A stretch of DNA of 64,000 bases from a virus (Duplodnaviria; Heunggongvirae; Uroviricota; Caudoviricetes), in IMG/VR virus record IMGVR_UViG_2541047802_000007. One strand, given 5' to 3'. A model generated the notes under the pieces. The model did not search any database, was not told the DNA's origin, and saw nothing but the letters and a program-made list of their open reading frames with translations. Every line of letters begins with the position of its first letter. Within the stretch, counting starts at the first letter, position 1. Shown here one piece after another: positions 6,752 through 57,436 of the stretch. Position numbers and translations under genes: made by a program.

Positions 6752-6755
6752 GCAC

Positions 6756-7979: not shown

Positions 7980-8095
7980 GAGTGGCGGCATAATGGCGGC
8001 AAAGAGTTAAAAACACATAAAACAAGGTAATACATCGTAAACTTAAGTGATTGAAAATTAACATAAATAGTTGTTTTGCAACATGTTATAATGGT

Positions 8096-8140: not shown

Positions 8141-8267
8141 ATCATGATTGGACGGTGTAAGGACAACACCAACAAAAACAGGAAGTTAGAAGTCTCAGCA
8201 GGACACCGACCAGACGGTGAGGAGACATAAAAGGATACGCAAAGGAGCCGCGGCTCCGAAGTGAAAT

Positions 8268-8293
8268 GAAAGCCCGCTGATGCGGGCTTTTTT
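8268..8293 (+). terminator. Rho-independent terminator
   Basis: gcccgc-tgat-gcgggc hairpin followed by T6. Confidence 0.5.
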
Positions 8294-8525
8294 GCTTCTT
8301 CTCTTTAGCCTGATTCGACACTCTCAATGCGGCCATAAACAACAACCCACTTTTCTTATACCGTAGCCTGTCCCCCTCTTCCTGCTTTCTAACCATAACA
8401 GATGTGAGCGTTTGCTATGAGCGATATATAGTCATTCGTACCCTCCGATACTAATCATCACAGAAATTAATATATTCATTCCTTACTGAAAAGCTATGAA
8501 GTAGATATATAGGATTGGGGCGCGT

Positions 8526-8723
8526 ATGGCACTGGACAGTTATGCATCTCCGAATATTATTCCGGAGCTAAGACAACCGAATGCCGCAGCAGGTAAGATC
8601 ACGCTAGGGGGGCTGGACAGAATGGCTGTTACGCCCAGTGTGAAGAAAAGAAGGCTAAGTATGGTAGAATTTCCATACGCACAGACCTTGTTATCCGACT
8701 ATACAGCCTGGAAGGCACTATGA
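8526..8723 (+). CDS. Hypothetical small protein, 4-nt overlap with next gene
   Basis: ORF track 65 aa. Confidence 0.3.
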   Translation: MALDSYASPNIIPELRQPNAAAGKITLGGLDRMAVTPSVKKRRLSMVEFPYAQTLLSDYTAWKAL

Positions 8724-9508
8724 CAAATCTACAACTGGAAGAAAGATTTAGGGCGCTTGAGAAAGATTACGATGCGCTCATTTCCACAAAATATACTGCG
8801 CAGAACGTTCTCACTCACACTATGGAAACCTATGTTGATTCTGGTAAATATAAAAACTGGATCGCCAGAGTGAAAAAGTTAATAGAGGACAGCTACGGAA
8901 AAGAGTCTGATTATTACAATGACTTCAATACTGTAAACAGCAGGTGGTCTTCTAATTACAATACACTGATCAAAAGTTATAAACCGTTGTTTGATGCGGC
9001 GAGAGATGATCTTGCGCACTCTGCTGTCAGTACTAATACTCCTCAAGAAGGTTCGCCGCTGAGCCTCGTACTTAATATTCTTAACAGGTTTCCGACCTTT
9101 GTTCGCCAGTTAAAGAGGCGGTACAACGGCCGTGCGCCGCTTGAAGTTAATGATGAGTATGACGTACAGGATTTGATTTATGCACTGCTGACGCTTCATT
9201 TTAATGATATTAGGGCGGAAGAGTATACCCCCAGCTTTGCGGGCGCGGCCTCAAGACAGGACTTTCTTTTGAAAAAAGAGAAAATTGTGATAGAGGTGAA
9301 GAAAACCCGTGAATCTCTGGGAGCGGGTAAAGTTGGTGGAGAGTTGCTTATTGATATGGCGCGCTACCGCGCTCACCAAGACTGCGATACGTTGATCTTG
9401 TTTGTATATGACCCGGATTGCTACATAAATAATCCTTTGGGCGTGAAAACCGATCTGGAATCTAAAGACGCGGAAGGAAAAGTGAAGGTTGTTATTGCGC
9501 AGTTCTGA
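8720..9508 (+). CDS. Hypothetical protein with PD-(D/E)xK-like nuclease motif
   Basis: 262 aa; C-terminal D...IVIEVKK pattern. Confidence 0.45.
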   Translation: MTNLQLEERFRALEKDYDALISTKYTAQNVLTHTMETYVDSGKYKNWIARVKKLIEDSYGKESDYYNDFNTVNSRWSSNYNTLIKSYKPLFDAARDDLAHSAVSTNTPQEGSPLSLVLNILNRFPTFVRQLKRRYNGRAPLEVNDEYDVQDLIYALLTLHFNDIRAEEYTPSFAGAASRQDFLLKKEKIVIEVKKTRESLGAGKVGGELLIDMARYRAHQDCDTLILFVYDPDCYINNPLGVKTDLESKDAEGKVKVVIAQF

Positions 9509-9595
9509 CACGCTTAAGTGTCACCTTACAGGATTAGGTTTGCGGCCGTGCCAGCAGGACGAGCATGAAAAAGGCCGCTGGCACGGCCGGATTTG

Positions 9596-9889
9596 TCATC
9601 TTTGCCAGGTCAAATCAAAATCTACGTGAAAATCCGCAGGCTTAAGCTCGCAACTGCCACCACGCCCAATTAACGACGTTATGTTTACAACGTTTGAACC
9701 TGTTGAGATGGCAAGTTGAGTGTCATCTGTAAACGTGATGATTAGCATTTCAGTCTGATGAACCTGTACTCCAGTTTTCTGAAAACCAATCTGGACAGAT
9801 TTCACCGTTTTCCCAACCATTTCACGGGCTTGATTGATAGAGTAATTAGCTTCAACTTGTAGGTCATTCCTGAACTTGGGTAGTGTCAT
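9596..9889 (-). CDS. Hypothetical small protein
   Basis: ORF track 97 aa. Confidence 0.35.
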   Translation of the reverse strand: MTLPKFRNDLQVEANYSINQAREMVGKTVKSVQIGFQKTGVQVHQTEMLIITFTDDTQLAISTGSNVVNITSLIGRGGSCELKPADFHVDFDLTWQR

Positions 9890-10099
9890 TTTACATCCTC
9901 TTTAGTGAAGTTTTCGCTATTTAAATCAGCAGCATTCCTTTTAAATCACTGGCATGTCAGCAGTGGATAGTCTGAGTGTAACGTCCAGTGAGGGGAATAA
10001 ATATTGGTCAGACTTTGCACAAAAGAGCCAACTATCGCGGGCTCTCTCTCATCATGTGCGAAAATTGACCACAATATGAAATCCAGTTCCATTCCGAAA

Positions 10100-10924
<825 letters not shown>

Positions 10925-11034
10925 TCAATTGACAACTTATAATCCCTACTAGTTAGCATTATGATTTCCAGAGTGAGGAATATAAAAATCTCTGTTTCTG
11001 GCACATAACAGCCCTTAAGATCGTAGCTCGCCAT

Positions 11035-11080
11035 CATGGGGTGTCGGGGGGCGGAGGTTCAAATCCTCTCGTGCCGACCA
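11035..11080 (+). other. tRNA-Pro (proL-like) 3' fragment ending CCA; probable att-site remnant
   Basis: catggggtgtcggggggcggaggttcaaatcctctcgtgccgacca matches 3' portion of tRNA-Pro; 5' half missing. Confidence 0.65.
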
Positions 11081-11092
11081 AAAATCCCTTAA

Positions 11093-11121
11093 GAACCAGC
11101 CTATTATGGCTGGTTTTTTTA
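11093..11121 (+). terminator. Rho-independent terminator after tRNA-Pro fragment
   Basis: aaccagcc-tattatg-gctggtt hairpin then T-run. Confidence 0.55.
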
Positions 11122-11288
11122 TGATTGTTTTTTATGCGGAGAAATACCGGGGAATAATTGGGGTAAAACACCTTTAGGCTATTCACTTAGCCTACCACCA
11201 TCAAAATCTTTCCGAATGTATCCATCTCTTTTTTCTTATGCAGCTAAAACGAAGTCTTGATACTGTTTATTTACACAGATAAGAATAA

Positions 11289-11308
11289 TACTGTCTACAA
11301 ACGCAGTA
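11289..11308. promoter_or_regulatory. LexA-box-like sequence
   Basis: tactgtctacaaacgcagta = CTGT-N8-GCAG, one mismatch from CTGT-N8-ACAG. Confidence 0.35.
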
Positions 11309-11321
11309 CAAAAGAAGTGTT

Positions 11322-11500
11322 ATGCGTATTGAGATCTCCATAGCCAAAGACAAAATGACCAAATGCCAAACGGCGCTGTGGACGCGTTAAAGGAAGAATT
11401 AACCCAACACATTGGCAAGCGTTATGACGATGTGGAGATGATCGTAAAAGCCACCAGCAACGATAGTTTTTCAGTTAGACATACTGCAGATAAAGATTGA
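11322..11500 (+). pseudogene. dinI-like gene disrupted by frameshift
   Basis: [11 protein letters not shown] in one frame, ...[25 protein letters not shown]... in another; both halves DinI-like. Confidence 0.4.
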
Positions 11501-11924
11501 GCTAAAACTTTCGTTCAGGAAACTCTGAATGATACCTGAGAGTCTACTGAAGAGTTGTTTGTTCACTAGTTAGCACGTAGGAAATCATTCAATACTCGCA
11601 CTATCGGAAGTTCACCAGCCAGTCGTAGCACGTCCTTGCAAACGACGTGCCTACGGTTTCAATCACCTCTCACCATCAATTCTATCAATAATAATTAAAC
11701 AGCGCCTAGACAAAATAAATAACAACAAGTCAACAACCTCGACAGGATGCCGATGGGATGATGAAGAGATAAGAAAGAATAACCAGTAAAGCCCTAAAAC
11801 GTCAGCGTTCAGACGCGTTTTTTACTTAATCGGTAACAAATACGTTGTATCATAGCAAAATAAAATGATTGTTCTAAATCAGATTAACTCCTCACTTTTG
11901 TACAATGTCGCTTACAGGTATACC

Positions 11925-13814
11925 ATGAAATCCGAGACGCTAACTGTCCAACAACTTTTTCAAGACCGCCGACAATACTGTGTTCCATTCTATCAACGTG
12001 CCTATGTATGGACTCAGCAAGACCAGTGGTCAGCTCTACTGGAGGATATCCTAGAGAAAGTACAATCCCGGCTCTCGGGTACAAAACCAACTCCCCATTT
12101 CCTTGGTGCGGTTGTACTGGAACCTCAATCAAAAAAAGGATTATTAGGTGTAGATTCCATACATATTATTGATGGTCAGCAACGATTGACCACTCTTCAA
12201 TATGTTCTGGCATCCATCCGATTAGCATTACGTGCTACGGATCTTTCCAGCTTAGAGGCTCTCATTTCGCCTTGCCTGAAAAACTCAAACGAAGACACAA
12301 TGCGAAATAAAGAAGTAGAACGCTTCAAACTGTGGCCAACTTTTCGGGATCAAACTCATTTTATTCAAAGTTTTAATGTTGAAAATATTGACGATCTCCG
12401 GGACGTATTCTCTGATAGTTTCACGCAGCATGGTACGTTGCGTAAGCATTTTAATCACCCGCCATCACTAGAAGCATTATGTTTTTTTACTGAAGCCTTT
12501 ATAAAATGGATTAAAATAGAAAACCACTCACCACAAGAAAATGCTGTAGCTCTAATTGAGGCTGTCTTAACAGATCTGAAACTGGTAAGCATATTTCTCG
12601 AAGCTGAAGATGATGCCCAAATAATTTTTGAAACATTAAATGGGCGAGGGGCGGAACTTCATGCTACGGATCTTATTCGCAACTATATCTTTATGTGCGC
12701 TGAGCATGAAAATATTAATGCTATTGAATTATATGAAAATGAGTGGAAGAGCTTTGAAGATAAATACTGGTCGGAAAAACAACGCCGTGGACGTATTAAT
12801 AAACCACGCATGGAGTGGCTAGTACATGCGACATTGCAATCAGAAAGGCAACGTGAAATTGATCTGTCTCGCCTTTACAATGAGTATCGTGATTATGTAA
12901 GTAAGGACTTGTCTTCACAACGAGCAGATCTGCAAGTAAAGCGCCTCAAACAATATGCATCACAATATAAAGAATTGGTTGATGGTTTTGGCACAACCCC
13001 CATCTCACACTTTGGATATCGCATCGCAGACTATGATGTGACGACACTTTATCCGCTTGCTTTGTTCATTTCGATAGCTAACATCGCTGATGATGAGAAA
13101 GCAGCCATGTATAATGATCTTGTCTCCTACGTAGTACGAAGAGCCGTATGTGGCCTGACGCCAAAGAATTACAACAATGTATTTATGAATGTATTGCGGC
13201 ACTTGGCTAAAACGGAAATTTCCAGTGTTGAGTTACGTAATATCCTCAATAACTTAAATGGCGAAGCCTCACGTTGGCCTGGTGACTCAGAATTTCTCAA
13301 CGCTTGCATCAATGCTCCACTTTATCCTGGCAGGCTCGACGCACCGAAAATGCGCTCAATGTTAACGGAACTTGAAAGAGAACTTTGTCGCCAAGTAAAG
13401 ACAGAAAAGCCTGATGTTCCAAATCTTTCTAATCTCGATATCGATCATCTTATGCCTCAAAGTTGGTATTCCTGTTGGCCTCTCGAAAATGGTCGTATGG
13501 TGACAAATTCAGATGCTACGGTATTGAACCAAATTGTTCTGTCTGGAACCGATCTTACCCCTGAACAGCTACTGGTAAGGAAACGGCAACAAGCGATATC
13601 TACTTTGGGAAATCTAACTTTGCTTAACCTTAGCGTAAACCGTTCTGTTCAGAATGCTGTATTTCTGAAAAAACGTGATGCTCTCATCGTCCACACCAAT
13701 CTACGACTGAACATTCCACTTATAGTTAAGGATAAATGGGATGAGGATGAAATCCTGGAGCGGGGTAAAAAGTTGGGGGAAATTGCATTGAAAGTATGGC
13801 CAAAACACGATTAA
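11925..13814 (+). CDS. GmrSD-like type IV restriction endonuclease (DUF262 + DUF1524)
   Basis: FYQRAYVW and IDGQQR motifs N-terminal; DIDHLMPQSW...GNLTLLNLSVN C-terminal; track start 11865, ATG 11925 preferred. Confidence 0.7.
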   Translation: MKSETLTVQQLFQDRRQYCVPFYQRAYVWTQQDQWSALLEDILEKVQSRLSGTKPTPHFLGAVVLEPQSKKGLLGVDSIHIIDGQQRLTTLQYVLASIRLALRATDLSSLEALISPCLKNSNEDTMRNKEVERFKLWPTFRDQTHFIQSFNVENIDDLRDVFSDSFTQHGTLRKHFNHPPSLEALCFFTEAFIKWIKIENHSPQENAVALIEAVLTDLKLVSIFLEAEDDAQIIFETLNGRGAELHATDLIRNYIFMCAEHENINAIELYENEWKSFEDKYWSEKQRRGRINKPRMEWLVHATLQSERQREIDLSRLYNEYRDYVSKDLSSQRADLQVKRLKQYASQYKELVDGFGTTPISHFGYRIADYDVTTLYPLALFISIANIADDEKAAMYNDLVSYVVRRAVCGLTPKNYNNVFMNVLRHLAKTEISSVELRNILNNLNGEASRWPGDSEFLNACINAPLYPGRLDAPKMRSMLTELERELCRQVKTEKPDVPNLSNLDIDHLMPQSWYSCWPLENGRMVTNSDATVLNQIVLSGTDLTPEQLLVRKRQQAISTLGNLTLLNLSVNRSVQNAVFLKKRDALIVHTNLRLNIPLIVKDKWDEDEILERGKKLGEIALKVWPKHD

Positions 13815-13926
13815 TGCAATTAATAAAATGATTATAGTGGCCTTACATTAGTAAGGCCGCTACTCACTATTAAATACTTTAATTTGCATCAAGAACAGCA
13901 GTGTCAGCCCTAGGTCTCGGACTTTG

Positions 13927-14049
13927 TACCGCTTATCTTGTCTTCAAAAATCAGCTCGCATCCTGCACAGTTCAGCGCATTACGTTGTAGATCTGTGTTC
14001 TGGTCATTTGTTGACACACGTACATAGCCAATAAGCATGGTAGATCTCC
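13927..14049 (-). pseudogene. Pin-like serine invertase, truncated after ~41 codons
   Basis: MLIGYVRVSTNDQNTDLQRNALNCAGCELIFEDKISGTKSE then stop; intact homolog at 56819..57436. Confidence 0.75.
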
Positions 14050-14092
14050 CTGACAAAAGCAGGAATGATGCCATTTGCTCGTTATTTCTGCA

Positions 14093-14118
14093 TTTTCATA
14101 AACGTTGGTTTGGGAGAA
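14093..14118. other. 26-bp invertase crossover site (pix/hix-like), left
   Basis: ttttcataaacgttggtttgggagaa; inverted copy at 16020..16045. Confidence 0.7.
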
Positions 14119-14559
14119 GCGGCAAAACGGAATGTGGGCAACGGGGAAAACCAAATCCCTGATATGTCTTTCTGGACGGTTACTGGTGGCAATGGAAATT
14201 TTGTGATTCGTCAACCTGACGGGCTAATCATTCAGATGGTTACTGTAAGTATAAGCGGCCCAGTGGCGATGAATGGAATGACTGATAATGCTTATGCCAT
14301 CACAGGTTCTAATAAGTCTTATATTGCCACAGCCACATTGCCCTTTGTATTTCCTAATAAGGTGCTGGGCGTTATCCCTCTGGTATCAACAACAGCTTAT
14401 GGTGGTGTATCCAGTAATATTACAGGTTCATACGCGACGGCGGTTTGTTCTTTTGCCGCTGTCAGGGGGAATAATACGATTGTGTTCAAAGTCGACAAAC
14501 CACTGAATGCAGCCTTTCCTTCAGATACCAGCGTCTCAGCGTTAATCATTGGACGGTAA
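14119..14559 (+). CDS. Tail-fibre C-terminal variable segment (Sv type), no own start
   Basis: Open frame runs through crossover site (FINVGLGE); track ORF 14065..14559 has artefactual N-terminus. Confidence 0.6.
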   Translation, partial: AAKRNVGNGENQIPDMSFWTVTGGNGNFVIRQPDGLIIQMVTVSISGPVAMNGMTDNAYAITGSNKSYIATATLPFVFPNKVLGVIPLVSTTAYGGVSSNITGSYATAVCSFAAVRGNNTIVFKVDKPLNAAFPSDTSVSALIIGR

Positions 14560-14561
14560 TA

Positions 14562-15005
14562 ATGAACTCAGTATTCTTTTCACCCGGAAGTAAAAGTTTT
14601 TATCTGCAAGAATTGTTTCCAGAATATGAGGATGCGGGAACGCTTCCTGATGATGTTATTGAAATTACCAGAGAAACATATGAGCAATTTCTTGGTCTGC
14701 ATCCAGAAGGGAAAGAAATTGGCGCTGACAGTTCAGGACGGCCAGTATGGATTAATTCCCCACCCCCTTCAAAAGAGGATGAGGTGTTGACGGCTGAAAT
14801 GAAAAAAATATCTTTGGTTTCAGAAGTCAATACCTACATCAATACCCATCAGTGGCCTGGCAAAGCTGCTATTGGTCGTCTGAAAGGCGAGGAACTGGCG
14901 CAATATAATTCGTGGCTGGATTATCTGGACGCACTGGAACTGGTCGATACTTCCTGTGCGCCAGATATTGAATGGCCTACGCCTCCGGCAGTTCAGGCCA
15001 GATGA
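14562..15005 (+). CDS. Tail fibre assembly chaperone
   Basis: 147 aa directly after Sv; C-terminal DIEWPTPP. Confidence 0.65.
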   Translation: MNSVFFSPGSKSFYLQELFPEYEDAGTLPDDVIEITRETYEQFLGLHPEGKEIGADSSGRPVWINSPPPSKEDEVLTAEMKKISLVSEVNTYINTHQWPGKAAIGRLKGEELAQYNSWLDYLDALELVDTSCAPDIEWPTPPAVQAR

Positions 15006-15579
15006 CATCCGGCGCTGTGCTGGTATTTGTTGCCGTCACCGCGTCAATGTAATCCAGCACAGCGTTAAGCCGGGTTGTTTCTGCCTGCATCAGCTTCCGT
15101 CCGGCCTGTAATTTCAGCTGAATCAGACCGATGGAAGCCATTGCAGCATCAATCAGTGACTGACGCTGTGCTTCTGCCGCGTCTACTGCGGCGCTATGCT
15201 GTGCCTCAGTATCGGTCACCCATTTCTCACCATCCCATTTATCGTATGGCGTTAATGGGGCAATAGTGGTTGTATTTTCGGGGTAATCACCCGGTGCTGT
15301 GATTTGTTTTGATTCTCCCGTTTCGGTGTTATAGACGATTTCACCGCGATGGTCTGGCACATATTCCCATGAATTTAAATTCACAGAACGACAGATAGCA
15401 TAACCCGCCTTATGTATACCTGGTGCATCCAGACAGGAATATGCCGGGATACCAACACCAACGGCAAGATATTCACTTGAAGTGGAAATATATTCCCGAG
15501 TTTCACCATCATAGTTATAAACGGTAATATCCCCTGCCTTTGTAGCAACAAGTCCACTATTTAATATTGCTTTATCCAT
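14977..15579 (-). CDS. Tail fibre assembly chaperone (TfaE-like), near-identical to prophage gpG at 47600..48202
   Basis: 200 aa MDKAILNSGLVATKAGDITVYNYDGETREY...; TAATG overlap with Sv' stop. Confidence 0.75.
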   Translation of the reverse strand: MDKAILNSGLVATKAGDITVYNYDGETREYISTSSEYLAVGVGIPAYSCLDAPGIHKAGYAICRSVNLNSWEYVPDHRGEIVYNTETGESKQITAPGDYPENTTTIAPLTPYDKWDGEKWVTDTEAQHSAAVDAAEAQRQSLIDAAMASIGLIQLKLQAGRKLMQAETTRLNAVLDYIDAVTATNTSTAPDVIWPELPEA

Positions 15580-16019
15580 TATGCTGCTCTCACGATATAG
15601 TTAAATGCAATGTTGCGTGGACGGGTATCGACGGGGTTAACGGCCACTGTACCCGACACGGACTGGTCATTACCGTTGCTAACGGTAATGTTACTACTGG
15701 TTGATCCAATCCCTACTGAATCGGTAAATTTAGCACCTGAGCCGCTCAAAGTTCCCGAGATGATAGCTAGCTCCACATAAAAAGTACCTACAGTTGGCTC
15801 TTGTGTTGACAGCACCGCACGCCTTGAATCAACGCCGCGCCCATCATCCCAGCCACGAATAAACTCACCACGTAAATCAGGCAATTTATTTGTCGGATAA
15901 GCCTTTGCCAGTTCCGGGTATTCTTCAGCAGAAAAAGCCGCACCGTTGCATTTCAGCCAGCCTGTTGGCGGTGTGGCTGAAGGCCATGGAACAGGCACAC
16001 CAACAGGTAATGCAGAGCC
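15579..16019 (-). CDS. Tail-fibre C-terminal variable segment (Sv' type), no own start
   Basis: GEGSALPVGVPVPWPSATPPTGWLKCNGAAF... shares N-part and last 13 aa with gpH C-terminus. Confidence 0.65.
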   Translation of the reverse strand, partial: GSALPVGVPVPWPSATPPTGWLKCNGAAFSAEEYPELAKAYPTNKLPDLRGEFIRGWDDGRGVDSRRAVLSTQEPTVGTFYVELAIISGTLSGSGAKFTDSVGIGSTSSNITVSNGNDQSVSGTVAVNPVDTRPRNIAFNYIVRAA

Positions 16020-16045
16020 TTCTCCCAAACCAACGTTTATGAAAA
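16020..16045. other. 26-bp invertase crossover site, right
   Basis: ttctcccaaaccaacgtttatgaaaa. Confidence 0.7.
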
Positions 16046-16088
16046 TGCAGAAATAACGAGCAAATGGCATCATTCCTGCTTTTGTCAG

Positions 16089-16211
16089 GGAGATCTACCA
16101 TGCTTATTGGCTATGTACGTGTGTCAACAAATGACCAGAACACAGATCTACAACGTAATGCGCTGAACTGTGCAGGATGCGAGCTGATTTTTGAAGACAA
16201 GATAAGCGGTA
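16089..16211 (+). pseudogene. Pin-like serine invertase, truncated after ~41 codons
   Basis: Same N-terminus as Gin at 56819..57436, then abrupt divergence and stop. Confidence 0.75.
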
Positions 16212-16323
16212 CAAAGTCCGAGACCTAGGGCTGACACTGCTGTTCTTGATGCAAATTAAAGTATTTAATAGTGAGTAGCGGCCTTACTAATGTAAGGCCA
16301 CTATAATCATTTTATTAATTGCA

Positions 16324-18213
16324 TTAATCGTGTTTTGGCCATACTTTCAATGCAATTTCCCCCAACTTTTTACCCCGCTCCAGGATTTCATCCTCATCCC
16401 ATTTATCCTTAACTATAAGTGGAATGTTCAGTCGTAGATTGGTGTGGACGATGAGAGCATCACGTTTTTTCAGAAATACAGCATTCTGAACAGAACGGTT
16501 TACGCTAAGGTTAAGCAAAGTTAGATTTCCCAAAGTAGATATCGCTTGTTGCCGTTTCCTTACCAGTAGCTGTTCAGGGGTAAGATCGGTTCCAGACAGA
16601 ACAATTTGGTTCAATACCGTAGCATCTGAATTTGTCACCATACGACCATTTTCGAGAGGCCAACAGGAATACCAACTTTGAGGCATAAGATGATCGATAT
16701 CGAGATTAGAAAGATTTGGAACATCAGGCTTTTCTGTCTTTACTTGGCGACAAAGTTCTCTTTCAAGTTCCGTTAACATTGAGCGCATTTTCGGTGCGTC
16801 GAGCCTGCCAGGATAAAGTGGAGCATTGATGCAAGCGTTGAGAAATTCTGAGTCACCAGGCCAACGTGAGGCTTCGCCATTTAAGTTATTGAGGATATTA
16901 CGTAACTCAACACTGGAAATTTCCGTTTTAGCCAAGTGCCGCAATACATTCATAAATACATTGTTGTAATTCTTTGGCGTCAGGCCACATACGGCTCTTC
17001 GTACTACGTAGGAGACAAGATCATTATACATGGCTGCTTTCTCATCATCAGCGATGTTAGCTATCGAAATGAACAAAGCAAGCGGATAAAGTGTCGTCAC
17101 ATCATAGTCTGCGATGCGATATCCAAAGTGTGAGATGGGGGTTGTGCCAAAACCATCAACCAATTCTTTATATTGTGATGCATATTGTTTGAGGCGCTTT
17201 ACTTGCAGATCTGCTCGTTGTGAAGACAAGTCCTTACTTACATAATCACGATACTCATTGTAAAGGCGAGACAGATCAATTTCACGTTGCCTTTCTGATT
17301 GCAATGTCGCATGTACTAGCCACTCCATGCGTGGTTTATTAATACGTCCACGGCGTTGTTTTTCCGACCAGTATTTATCTTCAAAGCTCTTCCACTCATT
17401 TTCATATAATTCAATAGCATTAATATTTTCATGCTCAGCGCACATAAAGATATAGTTGCGAATAAGATCCGTAGCATGAAGTTCCGCCCCTCGCCCATTT
17501 AATGTTTCAAAAATTATTTGGGCATCATCTTCAGCTTCGAGAAATATGCTTACCAGTTTCAGATCTGTTAAGACAGCCTCAATTAGAGCTACAGCATTTT
17601 CTTGTGGTGAGTGGTTTTCTATTTTAATCCATTTTATAAAGGCTTCAGTAAAAAAACATAATGCTTCTAGTGATGGCGGGTGATTAAAATGCTTACGCAA
17701 CGTACCATGCTGCGTGAAACTATCAGAGAATACGTCCCGGAGATCGTCAATATTTTCAACATTAAAACTTTGAATAAAATGAGTTTGATCCCGAAAAGTT
17801 GGCCACAGTTTGAAGCGTTCTACTTCTTTATTTCGCATTGTGTCTTCGTTTGAGTTTTTCAGGCAAGGCGAAATGAGAGCCTCTAAGCTGGAAAGATCCG
17901 TAGCACGTAATGCTAATCGGATGGATGCCAGAACATATTGAAGAGTGGTCAATCGTTGCTGACCATCAATAATATGTATGGAATCTACACCTAATAATCC
18001 TTTTTTTGATTGAGGTTCCAGTACAACCGCACCAAGGAAATGGGGAGTTGGTTTTGTACCCGAGAGCCGGGATTGTACTTTCTCTAGGATATCCTCCAGT
18101 AGAGCTGACCACTGGTCTTGCTGAGTCCATACATAGGCACGTTGATAGAATGGAACACAGTATTGTCGGCGGTCTTGAAAAAGTTGTTGGACAGTTAGCG
18201 TCTCGGATTTCAT
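16324..18213 (-). CDS. GmrSD-like type IV restriction endonuclease (DUF262 + DUF1524)
   Basis: Mirror of 11925..13814. Confidence 0.7.
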   Translation of the reverse strand: MKSETLTVQQLFQDRRQYCVPFYQRAYVWTQQDQWSALLEDILEKVQSRLSGTKPTPHFLGAVVLEPQSKKGLLGVDSIHIIDGQQRLTTLQYVLASIRLALRATDLSSLEALISPCLKNSNEDTMRNKEVERFKLWPTFRDQTHFIQSFNVENIDDLRDVFSDSFTQHGTLRKHFNHPPSLEALCFFTEAFIKWIKIENHSPQENAVALIEAVLTDLKLVSIFLEAEDDAQIIFETLNGRGAELHATDLIRNYIFMCAEHENINAIELYENEWKSFEDKYWSEKQRRGRINKPRMEWLVHATLQSERQREIDLSRLYNEYRDYVSKDLSSQRADLQVKRLKQYASQYKELVDGFGTTPISHFGYRIADYDVTTLYPLALFISIANIADDEKAAMYNDLVSYVVRRAVCGLTPKNYNNVFMNVLRHLAKTEISSVELRNILNNLNGEASRWPGDSEFLNACINAPLYPGRLDAPKMRSMLTELERELCRQVKTEKPDVPNLSNLDIDHLMPQSWYSCWPLENGRMVTNSDATVLNQIVLSGTDLTPEQLLVRKRQQAISTLGNLTLLNLSVNRSVQNAVFLKKRDALIVHTNLRLNIPLIVKDKWDEDEILERGKKLGEIALKVWPKHD

Positions 18214-18637
18214 GGTATACCTGTAAGCGACATTGTACAAAAGTGAGGAGTTAATCTGATTTAGAACAATCATTTTATTTTGCTATGATACAACGTATTT
18301 GTTACCGATTAAGTAAAAAACGCGTCTGAACGCTGACGTTTTAGGGCTTTACTGGTTATTCTTTCTTATCTCTTCATCATCCCATCGGCATCCTGTCGAG
18401 GTTGTTGACTTGTTGTTATTTATTTTGTCTAGGCGCTGTTTAATTATTATTGATAGAATTGATGGTGAGAGGTGATTGAAACCGTAGGCACGTCGTTTGC
18501 AAGGACGTGCTACGACTGGCTGGTGAACTTCCGATAGTGCGAGTATTGAATGATTTCCTACGTGCTAACTAGTGAACAAACAACTCTTCAGTAGACTCTC
18601 AGGTATCATTCAGAGTTTCCTGAACGAAAGTTTTAGC

Positions 18638-18816
18638 TCAATCTTTATCTGCAGTATGTCTAACTGAAAAACTATCGTTGCTGGTGGCTTTTACGATCAT
18701 CTCCACATCGTCATAACGCTTGCCAATGTGTTGGGTTAATTCTTCCTTTAACGCGTCCACAGCGCCGTTTGGCATTTGGTCATTTTGTCTTTGGCTATGG
18801 AGATCTCAATACGCAT
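18638..18816 (-). pseudogene. dinI-like gene disrupted by frameshift
   Basis: Mirror of 11322..11500. Confidence 0.4.
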
Positions 18817-18829
18817 AACACTTCTTTTG

Positions 18830-18849
18830 TACTGCGTTTGTAGACAGTA
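18830..18849. promoter_or_regulatory. LexA-box-like sequence
   Basis: Mirror of 11289..11308. Confidence 0.35.
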
Positions 18850-19016
18850 TTATTCTTATCTGTGTAAATAAACAGTATCAAGACTTCGTTTTAGCTGCAT
18901 AAGAAAAAAGAGATGGATACATTCGGAAAGATTTTGATGGTGGTAGGCTAAGTGAATAGCCTAAAGGTGTTTTACCCCAATTATTCCCCGGTATTTCTCC
19001 GCATAAAAAACAATCA

Positions 19017-19045
19017 TAAAAAAACCAGCCATAATAGGCTGGTTC
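19017..19045 (-). terminator. Rho-independent terminator
   Basis: Mirror of 11093..11121. Confidence 0.5.
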
Positions 19046-19057
19046 TTAAGGGATTTT

Positions 19058-19103
19058 TGGTCGGCACGAGAGGATTTGAACCTCCGCCCCCCGACACCCC
19101 ATG
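19058..19103 (-). other. tRNA-Pro 3' fragment (att remnant)
   Basis: Mirror of 11035..11080. Confidence 0.65.
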
Positions 19104-19213
19104 ATGGCGAGCTACGATCTTAAGGGCTGTTATGTGCCAGAAACAGAGATTTTTATATTCCTCACTCTGGAAATCATAATGCTAACTAGTAGGGATTATA
19201 AGTTGTCAATTGA

Positions 19214-20038
<825 letters not shown>

Positions 20039-20248
20039 TTTCGGAATGGAACTGGATTTCATATTGTGGTCAATTTTCGCACATGATGAGAGAGAGCCCG
20101 CGATAGTTGGCTCTTTTGTGCAAAGTCTGACCAATATTTATTCCCCTCACTGGACGTTACACTCAGACTATCCACTGCTGACATGCCAGTGATTTAAAAG
20201 GAATGCTGCTGATTTAAATAGCGAAAACTTCACTAAAGAGGATGTAAA

Positions 20249-20542
20249 ATGACACTACCCAAGTTCAGGAATGACCTACAAGTTGAAGCTAATTACTCTA
20301 TCAATCAAGCCCGTGAAATGGTTGGGAAAACGGTGAAATCTGTCCAGATTGGTTTTCAGAAAACTGGAGTACAGGTTCATCAGACTGAAATGCTAATCAT
20401 CACGTTTACAGATGACACTCAACTTGCCATCTCAACAGGTTCAAACGTTGTAAACATAACGTCGTTAATTGGGCGTGGTGGCAGTTGCGAGCTTAAGCCT
20501 GCGGATTTTCACGTAGATTTTGATTTGACCTGGCAAAGATGA
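20249..20542 (+). CDS. Hypothetical small protein
   Basis: ORF track 97 aa. Confidence 0.35.
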   Translation: MTLPKFRNDLQVEANYSINQAREMVGKTVKSVQIGFQKTGVQVHQTEMLIITFTDDTQLAISTGSNVVNITSLIGRGGSCELKPADFHVDFDLTWQR

Positions 20543-20629
20543 CAAATCCGGCCGTGCCAGCGGCCTTTTTCATGCTCGTCCTGCTGGCACGGCCGCAAAC
20601 CTAATCCTGTAAGGTGACACTTAAGCGTG

Positions 20630-21418
20630 TCAGAACTGCGCAATAACAACCTTCACTTTTCCTTCCGCGTCTTTAGATTCCAGATCGGTTTTCACGCCCA
20701 AAGGATTATTTATGTAGCAATCCGGGTCATATACAAACAAGATCAACGTATCGCAGTCTTGGTGAGCGCGGTAGCGCGCCATATCAATAAGCAACTCTCC
20801 ACCAACTTTACCCGCTCCCAGAGATTCACGGGTTTTCTTCACCTCTATCACAATTTTCTCTTTTTTCAAAAGAAAGTCCTGTCTTGAGGCCGCGCCCGCA
20901 AAGCTGGGGGTATACTCTTCCGCCCTAATATCATTAAAATGAAGCGTCAGCAGTGCATAAATCAAATCCTGTACGTCATACTCATCATTAACTTCAAGCG
21001 GCGCACGGCCGTTGTACCGCCTCTTTAACTGGCGAACAAAGGTCGGAAACCTGTTAAGAATATTAAGTACGAGGCTCAGCGGCGAACCTTCTTGAGGAGT
21101 ATTAGTACTGACAGCAGAGTGCGCAAGATCATCTCTCGCCGCATCAAACAACGGTTTATAACTTTTGATCAGTGTATTGTAATTAGAAGACCACCTGCTG
21201 TTTACAGTATTGAAGTCATTGTAATAATCAGACTCTTTTCCGTAGCTGTCCTCTATTAACTTTTTCACTCTGGCGATCCAGTTTTTATATTTACCAGAAT
21301 CAACATAGGTTTCCATAGTGTGAGTGAGAACGTTCTGCGCAGTATATTTTGTGGAAATGAGCGCATCGTAATCTTTCTCAAGCGCCCTAAATCTTTCTTC
21401 CAGTTGTAGATTTGTCAT
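20630..21418 (-). CDS. Hypothetical protein with PD-(D/E)xK-like motif
   Basis: Mirror of 8720..9508. Confidence 0.45.
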   Translation of the reverse strand: MTNLQLEERFRALEKDYDALISTKYTAQNVLTHTMETYVDSGKYKNWIARVKKLIEDSYGKESDYYNDFNTVNSRWSSNYNTLIKSYKPLFDAARDDLAHSAVSTNTPQEGSPLSLVLNILNRFPTFVRQLKRRYNGRAPLEVNDEYDVQDLIYALLTLHFNDIRAEEYTPSFAGAASRQDFLLKKEKIVIEVKKTRESLGAGKVGGELLIDMARYRAHQDCDTLILFVYDPDCYINNPLGVKTDLESKDAEGKVKVVIAQF

Positions 21419-21612
21419 AGTGCCTTCCAGGCTGTATAGTCGGATAACAAGGTCTGTGCGTATGGAAATTCTACCATACTTAGCCTTCTTTTCTTCACAC
21501 TGGGCGTAACAGCCATTCTGTCCAGCCCCCCTAGCGTGATCTTACCTGCTGCGGCATTCGGTTGTCTTAGCTCCGGAATAATATTCGGAGATGCATAACT
21601 GTCCAGTGCCAT
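21415..21612 (-). CDS. Hypothetical small protein
   Basis: Mirror of 8526..8723. Confidence 0.3.
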   Translation of the reverse strand: MALDSYASPNIIPELRQPNAAAGKITLGGLDRMAVTPSVKKRRLSMVEFPYAQTLLSDYTAWKAL

Positions 21613-21844
21613 ACGCGCCCCAATCCTATATATCTACTTCATAGCTTTTCAGTAAGGAATGAATATATTAATTTCTGTGATGATTAGTATCGGAGGGTAC
21701 GAATGACTATATATCGCTCATAGCAAACGCTCACATCTGTTATGGTTAGAAAGCAGGAAGAGGGGGACAGGCTACGGTATAAGAAAAGTGGGTTGTTGTT
21801 TATGGCCGCATTGAGAGTGTCGAATCAGGCTAAAGAGAAGAAGC

Positions 21845-21870
21845 AAAAAAGCCCGCATCAGCGGGCTTTC
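21845..21870 (-). terminator. Rho-independent terminator beyond att
   Basis: Mirror of 8268..8293. Confidence 0.5.
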
Positions 21871-21997
21871 ATTTCACTTCGGAGCCGCGGCTCCTTTGCG
21901 TATCCTTTTATGTCTCCTCACCGTCTGGTCGGTGTCCTGCTGAGACTTCTAACTTCCTGTTTTTGTTGGTGTTGTCCTTACACCGTCCAATCATGAT

Positions 21998-22042
21998 TGG
22001 TGGAGCTGGCGGGAGTTGAACCCGCGTCCGAAATTCCTACAT
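21998..22042 (-). other. ssrA: ssrA 3'-end fragment = prophage att core
   Basis: Revcomp matches tmRNA 3' end ending CCA; 3' end points away from prophage. Confidence 0.8.
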
Positions 22043-22158
22043 ACCATTATAACATGTTGCAAAACAACTATTTATGTTAATTTTCAATCACTTAAGTTTA
22101 CGATGTATTACCTTGTTTTATGTGTTTTTAACTCTTTGCCGCCATTATGCCGCCACTC

Positions 22159-31436: not shown

Positions 31437-32846
31437 ATGTCTTTTCTTGATATAAAAAAAATGAGTAAAGAGAGGTTTAATGCTTTTGTTGATTGGACCA
31501 GAATGCCAAATACTGAACTTTTAGGCTATGAGTTTGAGTGGTACTGTAGTCCGAGAGAGTTCCTGCTAGGGGCACTATTATTGGATCAAATCGATGAAGA
31601 TTATAGCGGTATTGTTTTAGCAAGAGACTTAAGTGGGAGATATAGATGTATTGACCTATTTACTAGTGTTTCAGAAATGAATTCTGCACGAGCAAAACTA
31701 AAGAAATTAATGCGGAAGCATACTAAATTAAACGTAAAAGTATTTCCACAAGGTGATGAAACTTATAAAGCAATGGATTTATTCACACCTATAGTTACAC
31801 CAGATAAACTTCATCATCATTTTTCATTATTTGGTAAATATGCGAACTGGTCGCCTGCAACAGGGATAATCAAGGAAATGATGAATCATTTTGAGGATGT
31901 CGACGGGAATTTTATAGAGCAGTTTCAGACAACAGGTTTTGATGCCCGGCTATGGGAGTTATATCTTTTCGCATATTTACGAGAGGAACACTTTTGGCTA
32001 GATAGGCAGTTTAATGCCCCTGATTATGTGGCACGTAAGTATGGTAATACTATTTGCATTGAAGCTGTAACGGTTAATCCAACAGGGAATGATATTAATC
32101 AATCATCTGAAATGCTATCTGAACCTAAAAGTAAGGAAGAATTGCTAGAGAAAATAGAGAATTATATGCCGATTAAATTTGGAAGTTCTCTCTATTCTAA
32201 ACTGAAAAAGAAAACTCGATACTGGGATCTAGAACATGTTAAGGGGAATCCTTTAATTTTCGCAATTGCTGATTTTCATGAACCAAACTCTATGATTTGG
32301 TCCCATAGTGCACTTTGGCAGTATCTTTATGGTATTCGCTATGAGCATGTTAAATCTGAAGATGGATGTTACAGTTTAGCAACTAAGAAAATTATATCGC
32401 ATCAATTTGAGAAAAAGGAAATTCCTTCAGGCTTTTTCTTCTTGGATGAGTCTGAAAATATTTCGGCCGTCCTTAGTTCTAATAGTGGTACTATATCGAA
32501 GTTTAATCGGATGGGAAAACTGGCTGGTTTTGGAAGAAGTGACCTTAGATTATTTAGGAGTGGTTACTGCCATGATCATGACCCAGAGGCATTATATCCA
32601 GCAGCATTTAGTTTTGAAGTGAAAGAAGGCGATATTACAGAAACATGGGCAGAAGGTTTAAATATGTATCATAATCCTAATGCTAAATATCCTGTAGATC
32701 CTGATTTATTTCCTTCAATAGCACATCATTTTCTTGAAAATGGAGAGGTTAAAAGTATAGTGCCTGACTTTCATCCGTATACATCTATTACCATAAATGT
32801 CTTAACTCAAAATAATAAAAAACAAAAAATCAGAGTAGATGAGTAA
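31437..32846 (+). CDS. AT-rich cargo protein of unknown function, 469 aa
   Basis: Long ORF in low-GC island between cos-like site and portal gene; no recognisable motif. Confidence 0.6.
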   Translation: MSFLDIKKMSKERFNAFVDWTRMPNTELLGYEFEWYCSPREFLLGALLLDQIDEDYSGIVLARDLSGRYRCIDLFTSVSEMNSARAKLKKLMRKHTKLNVKVFPQGDETYKAMDLFTPIVTPDKLHHHFSLFGKYANWSPATGIIKEMMNHFEDVDGNFIEQFQTTGFDARLWELYLFAYLREEHFWLDRQFNAPDYVARKYGNTICIEAVTVNPTGNDINQSSEMLSEPKSKEELLEKIENYMPIKFGSSLYSKLKKKTRYWDLEHVKGNPLIFAIADFHEPNSMIWSHSALWQYLYGIRYEHVKSEDGCYSLATKKIISHQFEKKEIPSGFFFLDESENISAVLSSNSGTISKFNRMGKLAGFGRSDLRLFRSGYCHDHDPEALYPAAFSFEVKEGDITETWAEGLNMYHNPNAKYPVDPDLFPSIAHHFLENGEVKSIVPDFHPYTSITINVLTQNNKKQKIRVDE

Positions 32847-54077: not shown

Positions 54078-55174
54078 ATTTCAGCTCTGAACTGCTTAAC
54101 AAAGGCAACAAAACTCCCGCATTCAGCATCAGTATTGAGGGCAGGGATATCACCACTGTGCTGGATAACCGCCTGATGAGTTTGACGCTGACGGATAACC
54201 GGGGCTTTGAAGCGGACCAGCTTGATCTGGAGCTGGATGACGCTGACGGAAAAATCGTGCTGCCGCGCCGTGGTGCGGTTATTACGCTGGCGCTGGGCTG
54301 GAAGGGGCAGCCGCTTTTCCCGAAAGGGGCATTCACAGTGGACGAGATTGAACACACTGGCGCACCGGACCGCCTGACTATCCGGGCGCGAAGTGCTGAT
54401 TTTCGGGAAACGCTGAATACCCGCCGTGAAAAATCGTGGCATAAGACCACCGTCGGGGAAGTGGTGAAGGAAATAGCCGCGCGGCACAAGCTGAAGATGG
54501 CACTGGGTAAAGACCTGTCGGATAAGCCCGTGGAGCATATAGACCAGACTAATGAGAGTGACGGCAGTTTTCTGATGCGGCTGGCGCGACAGTACGGTGC
54601 CATCGCGTCGGTGAAAAATGGCAATCTGTTATTCATCCGGCAGGGGCAGGGCAAAAGCGCCACTGGTAAACCTCTGCCAGTGATCACTATCACACGCAAG
54701 GACGGCGACAGTCACCGATTTACCCTGGCAGATCGCGGAGCCTACACGGGCGTAATTGCCAGCTGGTTGCATACCCGCGAACCTGCGAAGAAAGAAAGCA
54801 CCACGGTGAAGCGTAAGCGCAGAACTAAGAAGCAGAAGAAAGAGCCGGAAGCGAAGCAGGGCGATTACCTGGTGGGTACGGATGAAAACGTGCTGGTACT
54901 TAATCGCACTTATGCCAACCGGAGCAACGCTGAACGGGCAGCGAAAATGCAGTGGGAACGCCTGCAACGCGGCGTTGCGTCATTCTCGCTACAACTGGCG
55001 GAAGGGCGGGCAGATCTTTACACGGAAATGCCAGTGAAAGTTAGTGGCTTTAAACAACCGATAGATGATGCGGAATGGACCATTACGACTCTGACTCATA
55101 CCGTCAGCCCGGATAATGGTTTTACGACCAGTATTGAACTCGAAGTGAAGATTGATGATCTTGAAATGGAATAA
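54074..55174 (+). CDS. D: Tail protein D
   Basis: 366 aa, last tail gene. Confidence 0.75.
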   Translation: MNFSSELLNKGNKTPAFSISIEGRDITTVLDNRLMSLTLTDNRGFEADQLDLELDDADGKIVLPRRGAVITLALGWKGQPLFPKGAFTVDEIEHTGAPDRLTIRARSADFRETLNTRREKSWHKTTVGEVVKEIAARHKLKMALGKDLSDKPVEHIDQTNESDGSFLMRLARQYGAIASVKNGNLLFIRQGQGKSATGKPLPVITITRKDGDSHRFTLADRGAYTGVIASWLHTREPAKKESTTVKRKRRTKKQKKEPEAKQGDYLVGTDENVLVLNRTYANRSNAERAAKMQWERLQRGVASFSLQLAEGRADLYTEMPVKVSGFKQPIDDAEWTITTLTHTVSPDNGFTTSIELEVKIDDLEME

Positions 55175-55242
55175 AGTGTTCTCAATATTGATATTTTGTG
55201 TATCATTACAATGATTCTGATAGCAAAGGTAGGGATCTGGAT

Positions 55243-55329
55243 ATGATGAATTGTCCAAAGTGTGGTCATGCGGCACACACAAGGAGCAGTTTTCAAGTAA
55301 CTGAAAGCACCAAAGAGCGTTACTGCCAG
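55243..55329 (+). pseudogene. ogr: Ogr/B-type zinc-finger late activator, truncated after codon 29 by Mu-like insertion
   Basis: MMNCPKCGHAAHTRSSFQVTESTKERYCQ then stop supplied by first bases of inserted element. Confidence 0.7.
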
Positions 55330-55410
55330 TGAAGCGGCGCACGAAAAGCGCGAAAGCGTTTCAAATAAAATACGAAAACTCAAAACTTTCGCGCTTCAAT
55401 TGAGACAGTT
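55330..55410. promoter_or_regulatory. Mu-type right end with transposase-binding repeats
   Basis: tgaagcggcgcacgaaaagcgcgaaagcgtttcaaataaaatacgaaaac closely resembles the Mu R-end as recalled. Confidence 0.75.
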
Positions 55411-55422
55411 GTTTTATGTATG

Positions 55423-55869
55423 TCAGTTTCGTTTACATTTATATGTCTTAAAAATATTCACATCATCTCGGATATAAAGATTTTTTCCTGATTTATCAAC
55501 GATAAAATACTTTATAACCGCAGGATTTCTAGTCAAAGCATAGAGATAATCAGTCCCTTTAATCTTTTCATCCTTGTCTTGTTCGTCAATTTGGCCTGTT
55601 TCTATCTGAGTGTATAGTTCACCTGTATCAAGGTCTGTCCATGACCCCATATCAACGCCCATATGCATACGAATACCGTGGCAGGTCCAAAAACCAGAGG
55701 CAGGGGCTTTATTTGCAACACTCTTATCTGGATCTATCCCGGCGGACCTTAAGACTGCATCAGCAGCCACTTCAGGATCAAAATCTTTTTCTTGAGCGTG
55801 ATTGACTGAGGAGGCGGTTAGTACGAATAGGCTGATGATGGTACTGATTAGCAATTTTGATTTTTTCAT
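55423..55869 (-). CDS. Secreted hypothetical protein (signal peptide), AT-rich
   Basis: MKKSKLLISTIISLFVLTASSVNHA signal-like N-terminus; between mom and element end. Confidence 0.5.
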   Translation of the reverse strand: MKKSKLLISTIISLFVLTASSVNHAQEKDFDPEVAADAVLRSAGIDPDKSVANKAPASGFWTCHGIRMHMGVDMGSWTDLDTGELYTQIETGQIDEQDKDEKIKGTDYLYALTRNPAVIKYFIVDKSGKNLYIRDDVNIFKTYKCKRN

Positions 55870-55913
55870 CTAATATGCTCCGTATGTGAGTAAATACATA
55901 AATTTATATGATA

Positions 55914-56651
55914 CTAATCAGAACTGCTTTTTGGGTATGGCTGAATCCTGAATAGTTTGGTATTTAGCCGCTTTCTTGCTCGCTTGTTCAGGAACCTGAT
56001 GTAGCGATACTGATTAAATTTGTGCACCACGGCACGCTCTTTATTAGCCCGTAAATACATGCCTCGTTGTCCACCGCGCTTAATTGCGTTCATCGTTATC
56101 TCGTGATACCACTCACCATCCAGCTCGTAGAACGTGCTTTCATGGCTGCCAATAAAATCAAAATTTGACGCCTGATACACAACGCCAGCACGTCCGCAGC
56201 GTTCGTCTGCAAAAGACTGAACCCACTCCACTGACGGATACAGTAACCTTATGGTTTTCAGTGCATAACTGATGGCCCGTGATTCAGAGTTGCGGGGCAT
56301 GTCGTCGTGTAGCCACATGCGGTTCAACTCCATATAGCCCCGGTTATCCGTTTCAAGCACGACACGACGACCAGAGTTGGGGTTAAGGGCATATCCCCAC
56401 TGGAGAACGCCAACCAGATCGCGTCCGCTGAATACTCCCAAGTGGAGGTAAGAGTTATTCACAAAACGGCGGGAATAGTGCTTTGTCTGAATAATTGTGC
56501 GGGCCAGCCAGCAGGATATGGTTTCAACGCGCAGCTCCTTTGAACCATAGCCAACAATCTGGCTTTCATACTCAATAACGCACGGTTTCGTCAGAATGCG
56601 TGATTTCTTCTCTTTTCCCACAATGTTTCTCCGTGGGATGCTCGCAGGCAT
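55914..56651 (-). CDS. mom: Mom-like DNA modification protein (start uncertain)
   Basis: 245 aa ORF overlapping com 3' end, downstream of gin-com. Confidence 0.55.
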
Positions 56652-56760
56652 TCAGCATTATGATATGACGTTTGCAACGCGGACACCTGATTTCAATGTG
56701 ATCAAAGGAATCCGCCTTAAATAACAGTTTGTTGCAGTTTTTACAGCGAATTGATTTCAT
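56572..56760 (-). CDS. com: Com zinc-finger translational activator of mom
   Basis: 62 aa [14 protein letters not shown]...RCPRCKRH four-Cys finger. Confidence 0.7.
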
Positions 56761-56818
56761 CTCACCTCCTTTGCATCAATTCGCCACTATCTTAAAAAAC
56801 ATCGTGGGTTGAGTGTGG

Positions 56819-57436
56819 TTATTGGGGCATAATCGATCTGTATTGCCGATCGATTTGATTGATTCGATCGTCGTTTTCTATATGCGTTCGTTTCGCGGGG
56901 TGTTTTTTATACAGAGTTGACAGAGCCACATCATAGATCAATGCAACCTGCTTGCGGGGGATTCCTTGTACTAATAAACGCCCGGCCTGCTCCCATTCCG
57001 CTTTGGTTAGTTTAGGTGGTCGCCCACCAATACGGCCTTTATTTCTGGCGGCAGCAAGTCCAGCCATCGTTCGCTCGATGATTAGTTCTCGTTCCATTTC
57101 AGCCAGGGCACCCATAACGTGGAAGAAAAAACGCCCCATTGGAGAAGATGTGTCTATGCTGTCGGTAAGACTGCGAAAATTAATCCCTCGCTCCCGTAGT
57201 TCCCCGACGAGGGAAATCAGATGTTTCATGCTTCGCCCGAGGCGATCCAGTTTCCAGACAACCAGTGTGTCACCTTTTTGAAGGCGCTTTAACGCGCGTT
57301 TTAATCCAGGTCTGTCTGTCCTTGTTCCGCTTAATTTATCTTCAAATATTTGTTCACATCCTGCACAAACAAGAGCGTTTCGTTGCAGGTCTGTATTCTG
57401 GTCATTTGTTGATACCCTTACATAGCCAATCAGCAC
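56819..57436 (-). CDS. gin: Gin/Pin-family serine DNA invertase, intact
   Basis: 205 aa; catalytic Ser in YVRVSTNDQ; C-terminal HTH. Confidence 0.85.
   Translation of the reverse strand: MLIGYVRVSTNDQNTDLQRNALVCAGCEQIFEDKLSGTRTDRPGLKRALKRLQKGDTLVVWKLDRLGRSMKHLISLVGELRERGINFRSLTDSIDTSSPMGRFFFHVMGALAEMERELIIERTMAGLAAARNKGRIGGRPPKLTKAEWEQAGRLLVQGIPRKQVALIYDVALSTLYKKHPAKRTHIENDDRINQIDRQYRSIMPQ

Follow-up and report, generated by a model that had tools for sequence, protein, structure and literature searches.

A predicted β-barrel protein with a signal peptide, encoded between mom and the right end of a Mu-like prophage, is phage D108 gp56 and belongs to an accessory family of Enterobacterales Mu-like phages

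The DNA analysed here, referred to as the window, is a stretch of 64,000 nucleotides from a viral record assigned to the Caudoviricetes (IMGVR_UViG_2541047802_000007). Among its listed open reading frames is one of 148 codons on the minus strand (55423–55869, ATG start, TGA stop included). Directly 5′ of this ORF and on the same strand lies the DNA modification gene mom (55914–56651), identified by a match to Pfam PF25680 (Mom, E = 1.9e-75) and by the annotation of phage D108. It is preceded by com (56572–56760, minus strand; Pfam Zn_ribbon_Com, PHROG 13819, and the D108 and Mu annotations), which encodes the translational activator of mom and is the first gene of the com–mom operon. A gin-type serine invertase gene was located by Pfam search at 56819–57436 on the minus strand, and a tail-fibre region resembling a G segment is found beyond gin, com, and mom. 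The mom stop codon is separated from the start of the 148-codon ORF by an AT-rich spacer of 44 bp (55870–55913, minus strand, 25% GC), in which a Shine–Dalgarno sequence, GGAG, can be read at 55878–55881, 8 nt 5′ of the ATG. The same ribosome-binding site is kept in a 90% identical variant of the gene (L028). At the other end of the ORF, the stop codon is followed by 14 bp and then by a Mu-type right end.

This arrangement agrees with the initial annotation, in which an extra AT-rich gene had been placed between mom and the Mu-like right end within some 580 bp; the distance from the mom stop codon to the prophage end was measured as 583 bp. The GC content of the ORF is 39.1% (33.6% at third codon positions), compared with 48.8% (54.5%) for mom. 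For Mu itself, the initial annotation gave only a short non-coding stretch after mom, and this was borne out, with 115 bp between the stop codon at 36602 and the genome end at 36717 (AF083977). About 115 bp likewise follow mom in typical Mu-type prophages such as those of E24377A and 2020C08-115.

The right end itself (attR, 55330–55408, no strand assigned) carries transposase-binding repeats and is 83.7% identical to the right end of Mu over 86 bp. This 79-bp stretch starts TGAAGCGGCGCACGAAAA and is read inward as TGAAGCGGCGCACGAAAAGCGCGAAAGCG..., and transposase-binding sites are annotated at the matching positions of the D108 record. From 55330, the Mu-like prophage extends rightwards past position 64000. 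In a global alignment with Mu, homology was confined to 55330–55408 and to the sequence from 55929 onwards, delimiting a D108-lineage-specific segment of ~520 bp (55409–55928) that takes the place of ~40 bp in Mu, flanked there by the right-end transposase-binding sites on one side and the end of mom on the other. Megablast matches to Mu and SfMu likewise began only at query position 604. The segment holds little beyond the ORF, its ribosome-binding site, and the 44-bp spacer, and relative to Mu it adds a C-terminal extension of five codons, KSSSD, to mom (55914–55931). A similar extension, KSTPD, was noted in a cargo-less Mu-like prophage of E. coli RM8082 (L013, 2501–2520), which implies that the mom extension either is older than the insertion of the downstream gene or has no connection with it. 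Electron microscopy in a 1981 heteroduplex study of Mu and D108 reportedly revealed some 0.5 kb of additional DNA close to the right end of D108.

Comparison with phage records showed that the feature is already known. The protein encoded in the window is 100% identical to the product of D108 gene 56, annotated as "D108-specific protein" (ACV50316.1; GQ357916/NC_013594), and the genes share 99.8% nucleotide identity. The order gin–com–mom–56–transposase-binding sites in the D108 record, as well as the position and strand of the gene, are the same as in the window, which differs only in the insertion site of the prophage. The protein also matches PHROG 15648 over its whole length (positions 1–148 of 148, E = 7.6e-88), a group annotated as of unknown function. 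When 55331–55913 was searched by BLAST against a phage collection, the whole stretch was recovered at 99.5–99.8% identity in six records, namely phage D108 (two records), Escherichia phages Mu_3F6 and PhiR68_1, and Yersinia phages vB_YpM_3 and vB_YpM_23; the copies of gene 56 in the latter four phages are identical or 99.3% identical. In the same search, Mu, SfMu, and one Proteus phage matched over the terminal 49–86 bp only. More broadly, the rightmost 8.7 kb of sequence in the window belongs to a Muvirus of the D108 lineage, with vB_YpM_3 as the best match (98% coverage, 97.3% identity). The proposal of a gene that is extra relative to Mu is therefore upheld by its absence from Mu and SfMu, but any novelty is lost to its identity with D108 gene 56, a name that we use from here on.

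The left boundary of the prophage falls within the late activator gene ogr of another, P2-like prophage, a context that the initial annotation had missed. The ogr remnant (55243–55329, plus strand; Pfam Ogr_Delta, E = 6.7e-10, profile positions 1–27 of 47) has been cut after ~29 codons by the Mu-like insertion and is flanking context outside the element. Intact ogr genes in E. coli S88, MS7163, and others match at 100% up to window position 55331, and the P2-like side is 100% identical up to the same position to prophages of extraintestinal pathogenic (ExPEC) strains of the S88, MS7163, and NU14 type. The junction between ogr and the Mu-like end was found in no complete E. coli genome of the collection. 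Several other features were noted elsewhere in the window. An inverted repeat of 14.1 kb, with arms at 1–14119 and 16019–30137 that are 100% identical, encloses a 1.9-kb spacer (14120–16018) with the C-terminal fragment of a tail fibre and two opposed tail-fibre assembly genes, similar to an invertible segment. Natural genomes match 13500–16038 and then diverge, and the left arm runs off the window; the repeat is probably either a fold-back mis-assembly or a rearrangement at inversion sites. A cluster of nuclease and restriction-type genes adjoins the P2-like early region at 8720–13814 (mirrored at 16324–21418) and includes genes for a DpnII/MboI-like endonuclease (8720–9508), a GIY-YIG protein (10100–10906), and a GmrSD type IV restriction enzyme (11865–13814). 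An ORF of 469 codons that has no Pfam match lies on the plus strand at 31437–32846, flanked by the P2 gpA replication gene on one side and the portal gene on the other, the interval in which P2 carries accessory genes (old/tin).

No function for gene 56 could be found in the databases or literature searched. Neither the window protein nor four diverse homologues matched any Pfam family at E ≤ 1, and searches of NCBIfam, PADLOC, and PDB sequences gave no meaningful family match. The PADLOC-DB defence profiles returned a single chance-level match (Csm2, E = 0.036), and a profile search against all PDB sequences also returned one chance match (E = 0.33). No RNA family was found by Rfam in 55100–56900 at a permissive threshold. 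Gene 56 is not discussed in papers on SfMu, Yersinia Mu-like phages, and Mu lysis, and full-text literature search yielded nothing further about the gene.

To identify relatives of gp56, a word-indexed search was carried out across 5.8 billion proteins, yielding 16 clusters at 90% identity, together with an exhaustive profile HMM scan of 1.84 billion representatives, yielding 11 representatives at 50% identity. One of the latter, a repetitive protein of 2,316 residues, was spurious, and otherwise few further close relatives were recovered. The family is tiny and closed and belongs to the Enterobacterales, with named members from Escherichia, Citrobacter, Salmonella, Hafnia, Kluyvera, and Apirhabdus. 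An alignment of 14 sequences with 43–89% identity contains 26 invariant positions, among them Cys63 and Cys145, and two conserved motifs, PASGFWxCxGxRLHMG and FIVDKSGKNLYIRDD..F.K.YKCKR. Two cysteines are found at matching positions in the mature part of all full-length members. Truncated copies of 81 and 98 residues occur in some assemblies, and in some homologues a linker of ~30 residues ahead of the C-terminal domain is missing. Between the window gene and the 90% identical variant, which also occupies the mom–attR position, dN/dS was estimated as 0.16 at a dS of 0.33; for distant pairs, dN lies far below a saturated dS, giving ratios of 0.1–0.23 or lower. Judged by these substitution patterns, gene 56 is a genuine gene under purifying selection. 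A chance ORF is ruled out by the conservation of 26 residues at 43–89% identity and by the dN/dS of 0.16.

The genomic surroundings of the family were compared across 31 loci, gathered by looking up exact protein matches and by scanning genome and viral contigs for patterns, with flanks typed by tblastn using GemA, Mor, Lys, Gin, Com, and Mom. All 31 are hosted by Mu-like transposable prophages. Only six have the arrangement gin–com–mom–X, where X is the family member, and the proteins at these loci are all at least 89% identical to D108 gp56; the order gin–com–mom–56–attR was seen at L018–L020 and L026–L028. In 18 of the 31 loci, the gene instead lies in the order gemA–X–mor–lys on one strand, and in the other seven it is inverted between gemA and mor. 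The start of the Hafnia homologue is positioned one base past gemA. The gemA–mor slot is closed in D108 by a 4-bp overlap of the two genes. Members of the family are thus normally housed at the end of the early region, and the copy in the D108 lineage has been relocated. Homologues in the gemA–mor slot, from Salmonella, Citrobacter, Hafnia, Kluyvera, and Apirhabdus (e.g. P0004, P0012, and P0013), are 43–57% identical to gp56 and share with it the signal peptide, the two cysteines, the barrel motifs, and the restriction to Mu-like transposable phages. They differ in their slot, which closes the early region instead of following mom, and, in one clade, in being encoded on the opposite strand.

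Several observations were made at individual loci. In the inverted, Salmonella-type clade, the homologue is flanked by two copies of a GC-rich hairpin resembling AAATCCCGCGCTGTGGCGGGATTT (L005, 5880–5906 and 6434–6457); the same bracketing hairpins are present at L021, L033, L035, and L036 and could be terminators or inversion sites. A contig from a Kluyvera metagenome-assembled genome carries ~930 bp of extra DNA between gemA and the homologue (L025, 3047–3976), which may be a further insertion in the gemA–mor slot. In E. coli RM13745 (NZ_CP044312.1; L014, 1881–2384, minus strand), a different protein of 167 residues is encoded in the mom–attR gap of a Mu-like prophage. It has a signal peptide (MMRKALKMVLITTAIISPIAQA) and two cysteines, and was found by hhalign to be unrelated to the gp56 family. 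Because the gap is filled there by an unrelated secreted gene, it behaves as a cargo slot, which suggests that secreted cargo collects between mom and attR.

Among 5,426 complete E. coli genomes, gene 56 is present in six and com–mom in 97. The initial annotation had reasoned that a gene universal and syntenic among Mu relatives, with a known structural role, would not be cargo. What was found is the reverse on both points, since the gene is missing from Mu and SfMu and from most E. coli genomes with com–mom. A structural role in the virion was rejected because Mu and SfMu share the virion genes and do not have gene 56. Gene 56 is thus an optional gene of foreign base composition that occupies one of two slots, gemA–mor or mom–attR, and is the D108-lineage copy of an accessory family carried only by Mu-like transposable phages of the Enterobacterales. 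Mu itself is reported to have no more than four membrane-protein genes, all of them adjoining lys (PMC9239132), which places gene 56 outside the core Mu lysis set. It resembles a moron in being a lineage-specific extra gene of deviant base composition at a module boundary or prophage end, and it is absent from the same place in Mu, SfMu, and most E. coli com–mom loci. Morons are said to have been described by Hendrix and colleagues for lambdoid phages as extra genes between conserved ones. Unlike gene 56, for which neither element was predicted by consensus scan, classical morons carry their own promoter and terminator.

The N-terminus of gp56 has the features of a Sec-type signal peptide (approximately residues 1–25, 55795–55869, minus strand), according to a simple rule-based script rather than a trained predictor. 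The n-region MKKSK carries three positive and no negative charges, the core LLISTIISLFV has a Kyte–Doolittle value of 2.69, candidate AxA-like cleavage sites fall at residues 19–25 (approximately 17–25 across the family), and there is no lipobox. Such features, with a core value above 2, were seen in every homologue examined, in keeping with the clear signal peptide of the initial annotation. In the AlphaFold2 model, residues 1–28 have pLDDT values below 50, and block means of 79–97 were obtained over residues 51–148, which contain eight strands. The mature domain (residues 56–148; 55426–55704, minus strand) is confidently predicted to form a lipocalin-like, eight-stranded antiparallel β-barrel that holds both conserved motifs together with Cys63 and Cys145. 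The predicted fold has the eight-stranded up-and-down topology of the lipocalins and calycins; membership of a lipocalin Pfam family, a size of 160–180 residues, and a C-terminal helix were not found, with a barrel of ~93 residues and no helix after its last strand. The best structural neighbours include lipocalins, fatty-acid-binding proteins, avidins, the Cap15 nucleotide receptor, and ZinT-like domains, and no match at E ≤ 0.001 was returned by Foldseek from the BFVD viral structures or the PDB. As modelled, gp56 has a generic fold of the calycin-like barrel type, from which no function can be read. Barrels of the family have isoelectric points between 4.9 and 9.1, leaving no conserved charge signature of the kind that might mark, for example, a lysozyme target.

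Signals for expression were sought around the gene by consensus scan. No σ70-like promoter was detected on the minus strand 5′ of the gene 56 start, in a scan that does not exclude weak or non-σ70 signals, and no intrinsic terminator was detected either between mom and gene 56 or between gene 56 and the prophage end. When the 44-bp spacer was inspected by eye, the best promoter matches were 8 of 12 or worse and did not include the key −10 bases. A want of expression signals had been counted in advance against the cargo proposal; the ribosome-binding site answers this in part, but a promoter and terminator of its own were not predicted. Because it has its own ribosome-binding site but no predicted promoter, gene 56 is probably co-transcribed with com and mom. 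Transcription from the late, C-dependent com–mom promoter would probably read through into gene 56, the com–mom–56 transcript would leave the prophage through attR, and gp56 would be translated from its own ribosome-binding site, late and together with Mom. Exclusion genes of temperate phages are usually expressed in the lysogen; such expression of gene 56 is unsupported, as no promoter was predicted in the window. Across lineages, family members sit in an early operon, in a late one, or in antisense orientation, the last presumably under a promoter of their own, and this variation leaves no obvious single role that depends on timing.

Taken together, these data favour a reading of gp56 as an exported, optional periplasmic binder that is co-transcribed with mom, to which we assign a probability of about 0.6, a figure that does not extend to any specific target. 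The initial annotation had suggested a periplasmic cargo, and the Sec-type signal peptide and the two cysteines of the mature part fit this, although a periplasmic location is read from sequence features. The protein would be exported to the periplasm, lose its signal peptide, and act there as a non-enzymatic binder of an envelope or periplasmic target. A binder is preferred to an enzyme because the barrel is small, no catalytic family was matched, and many of the structural neighbours are binders or inhibitors. Because the family has remained exclusively tied to one type of phage over long divergence, a role directed at phages is favoured over one directed at the host. As the favoured, if low-confidence, suggestion for its target, gp56 might act in superinfection exclusion by blocking the passage of an incoming phage across the envelope, for example by inhibiting its tail-associated peptidoglycan hydrolase. 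T4 Spackle (Sp), a phage-encoded protein with a signal peptide that is made during infection and acts in the periplasm, offers a functional analogy only, as there is no sequence similarity and gp56 is predicted to be all-β, whereas Sp is a helical protein. It is more doubtful still, if conceivable on the same analogy, that gp56 and its gemA–mor relatives constitute an unrecognised family of periplasmic β-barrel exclusion proteins specific to Mu-like phages, binding and neutralising a component with which incoming phages cross the envelope, such as a tail peptidoglycan hydrolase or the tape measure or needle.

Other roles for an exported barrel were weighed against the binder reading. The position at a prophage end and the foreign GC content are typical of lysogenic conversion genes, and gp56 could be a host-fitness factor that shields the lysogen envelope from external agents such as animal or bacterial lysozymes, in the manner of the PliC/MliC lysozyme inhibitors. 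The inverted arrangement, which must be transcribed apart from the phage early operon, and the second, unrelated secreted protein in the mom–attR slot of another Mu-like prophage are both consistent with a benefit to the host. This is nevertheless unlikely, given that no Pfam match at E ≤ 1 was obtained for five diverse members, although Pfam presumably contains an MliC family, and that the best structural matches are proteins other than PliC and MliC. With these and with other small barrel inhibitors (staphostatin, the LupI/serralysin-inhibitor type, and potempins), any likeness of gp56 would be one of common fold only; no sequence profile was matched, and none of these inhibitors is among the top structural matches. 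A conserved acidic charge is also absent, the D108 arrangement shows no predicted promoter, and the family never occurs outside Mu-like phages (31 of 31 loci), which would be unexpected of a generic host-fitness gene. A further proposal, in which gp56 tunes the timing of lysis by modulating the spanins, the Mu-type SAR endolysin (gp22), or the release of that endolysin, for instance by buffering endolysin released prematurely in holin-less phages, draws on the 25 of 31 loci in the gemA/mor interval, with lys following mor wherever the locus reaches that far, and on the same-strand placements in early and late operons, which imply transcription during lytic growth. Also in its favour, lysis by Mu depends on a SAR endolysin of the periplasm that is not under the control of a holin (PMC9239132). 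Yet Mu and SfMu lyse without gene 56, the gene lies 26 kb from lys in D108, inverted copies have no coupling to the lysis genes, and adjacency is weak evidence in a compact phage genome. A part in lysis timing is thus rather improbable.

The barrel could also be a periplasmic carrier of a small ligand, as its calycin-like fold would allow, or of a metal held by Cys63-x5-His69-Met70 with Trp61. Ligand-binding barrels (lipocalins, fatty-acid-binding proteins, avidins, Cap15, and ZinT-like domains) are indeed among the best structural neighbours, the first strand bears an invariant G-F-W that we liken to the G-x-W motif of lipocalins, and the cluster of Cys, His, and Met is kept in the 14-sequence alignment. 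We nonetheless consider a carrier slightly less probable than a lysis factor, as a lipocalin-type cavity probably would not fit in a barrel of ~93 residues, Pfam returned no match to a lipocalin, cupredoxin, CusF, or CopC family, the His–Met pair is missing in the most distant member (P0022), and the phage has no obvious need for such a protein. Finally, the 520 bp of extra DNA might be non-functional filler from illegitimate recombination that carries a chance ORF or a decaying remnant, as the lack of a predicted promoter or terminator, the absence from Mu, and the truncated 81- and 98-residue copies could suggest. This is extremely improbable in view of homologues that, at 43–57% identity, keep the length, the signal peptide, the two cysteines, and 26 invariant residues, and of the low dN/dS (0.16) and the confident predicted fold; no Rfam match points to an RNA element either.

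D108 is a classic model phage, and gp56, with its predicted export, is among the few genes that set it apart from Mu. The finding in the window adds nothing new by itself, and its interest lies in a family that has been kept under selection in two genomic slots. Should gp56 turn out to be an exclusion factor or an enzyme inhibitor, the interface between phage and host would gain a further small periplasmic protein. If the exclusion family were real, it would represent a new structural class that does the job of T4 Spackle, and it would explain why these genes travel with transposable phages only and have been re-slotted at least twice. A role of gp56 in exclusion or enzyme inhibition would be readily tested in E. 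coli K-12 and would overturn nothing in what is understood of Mu biology.
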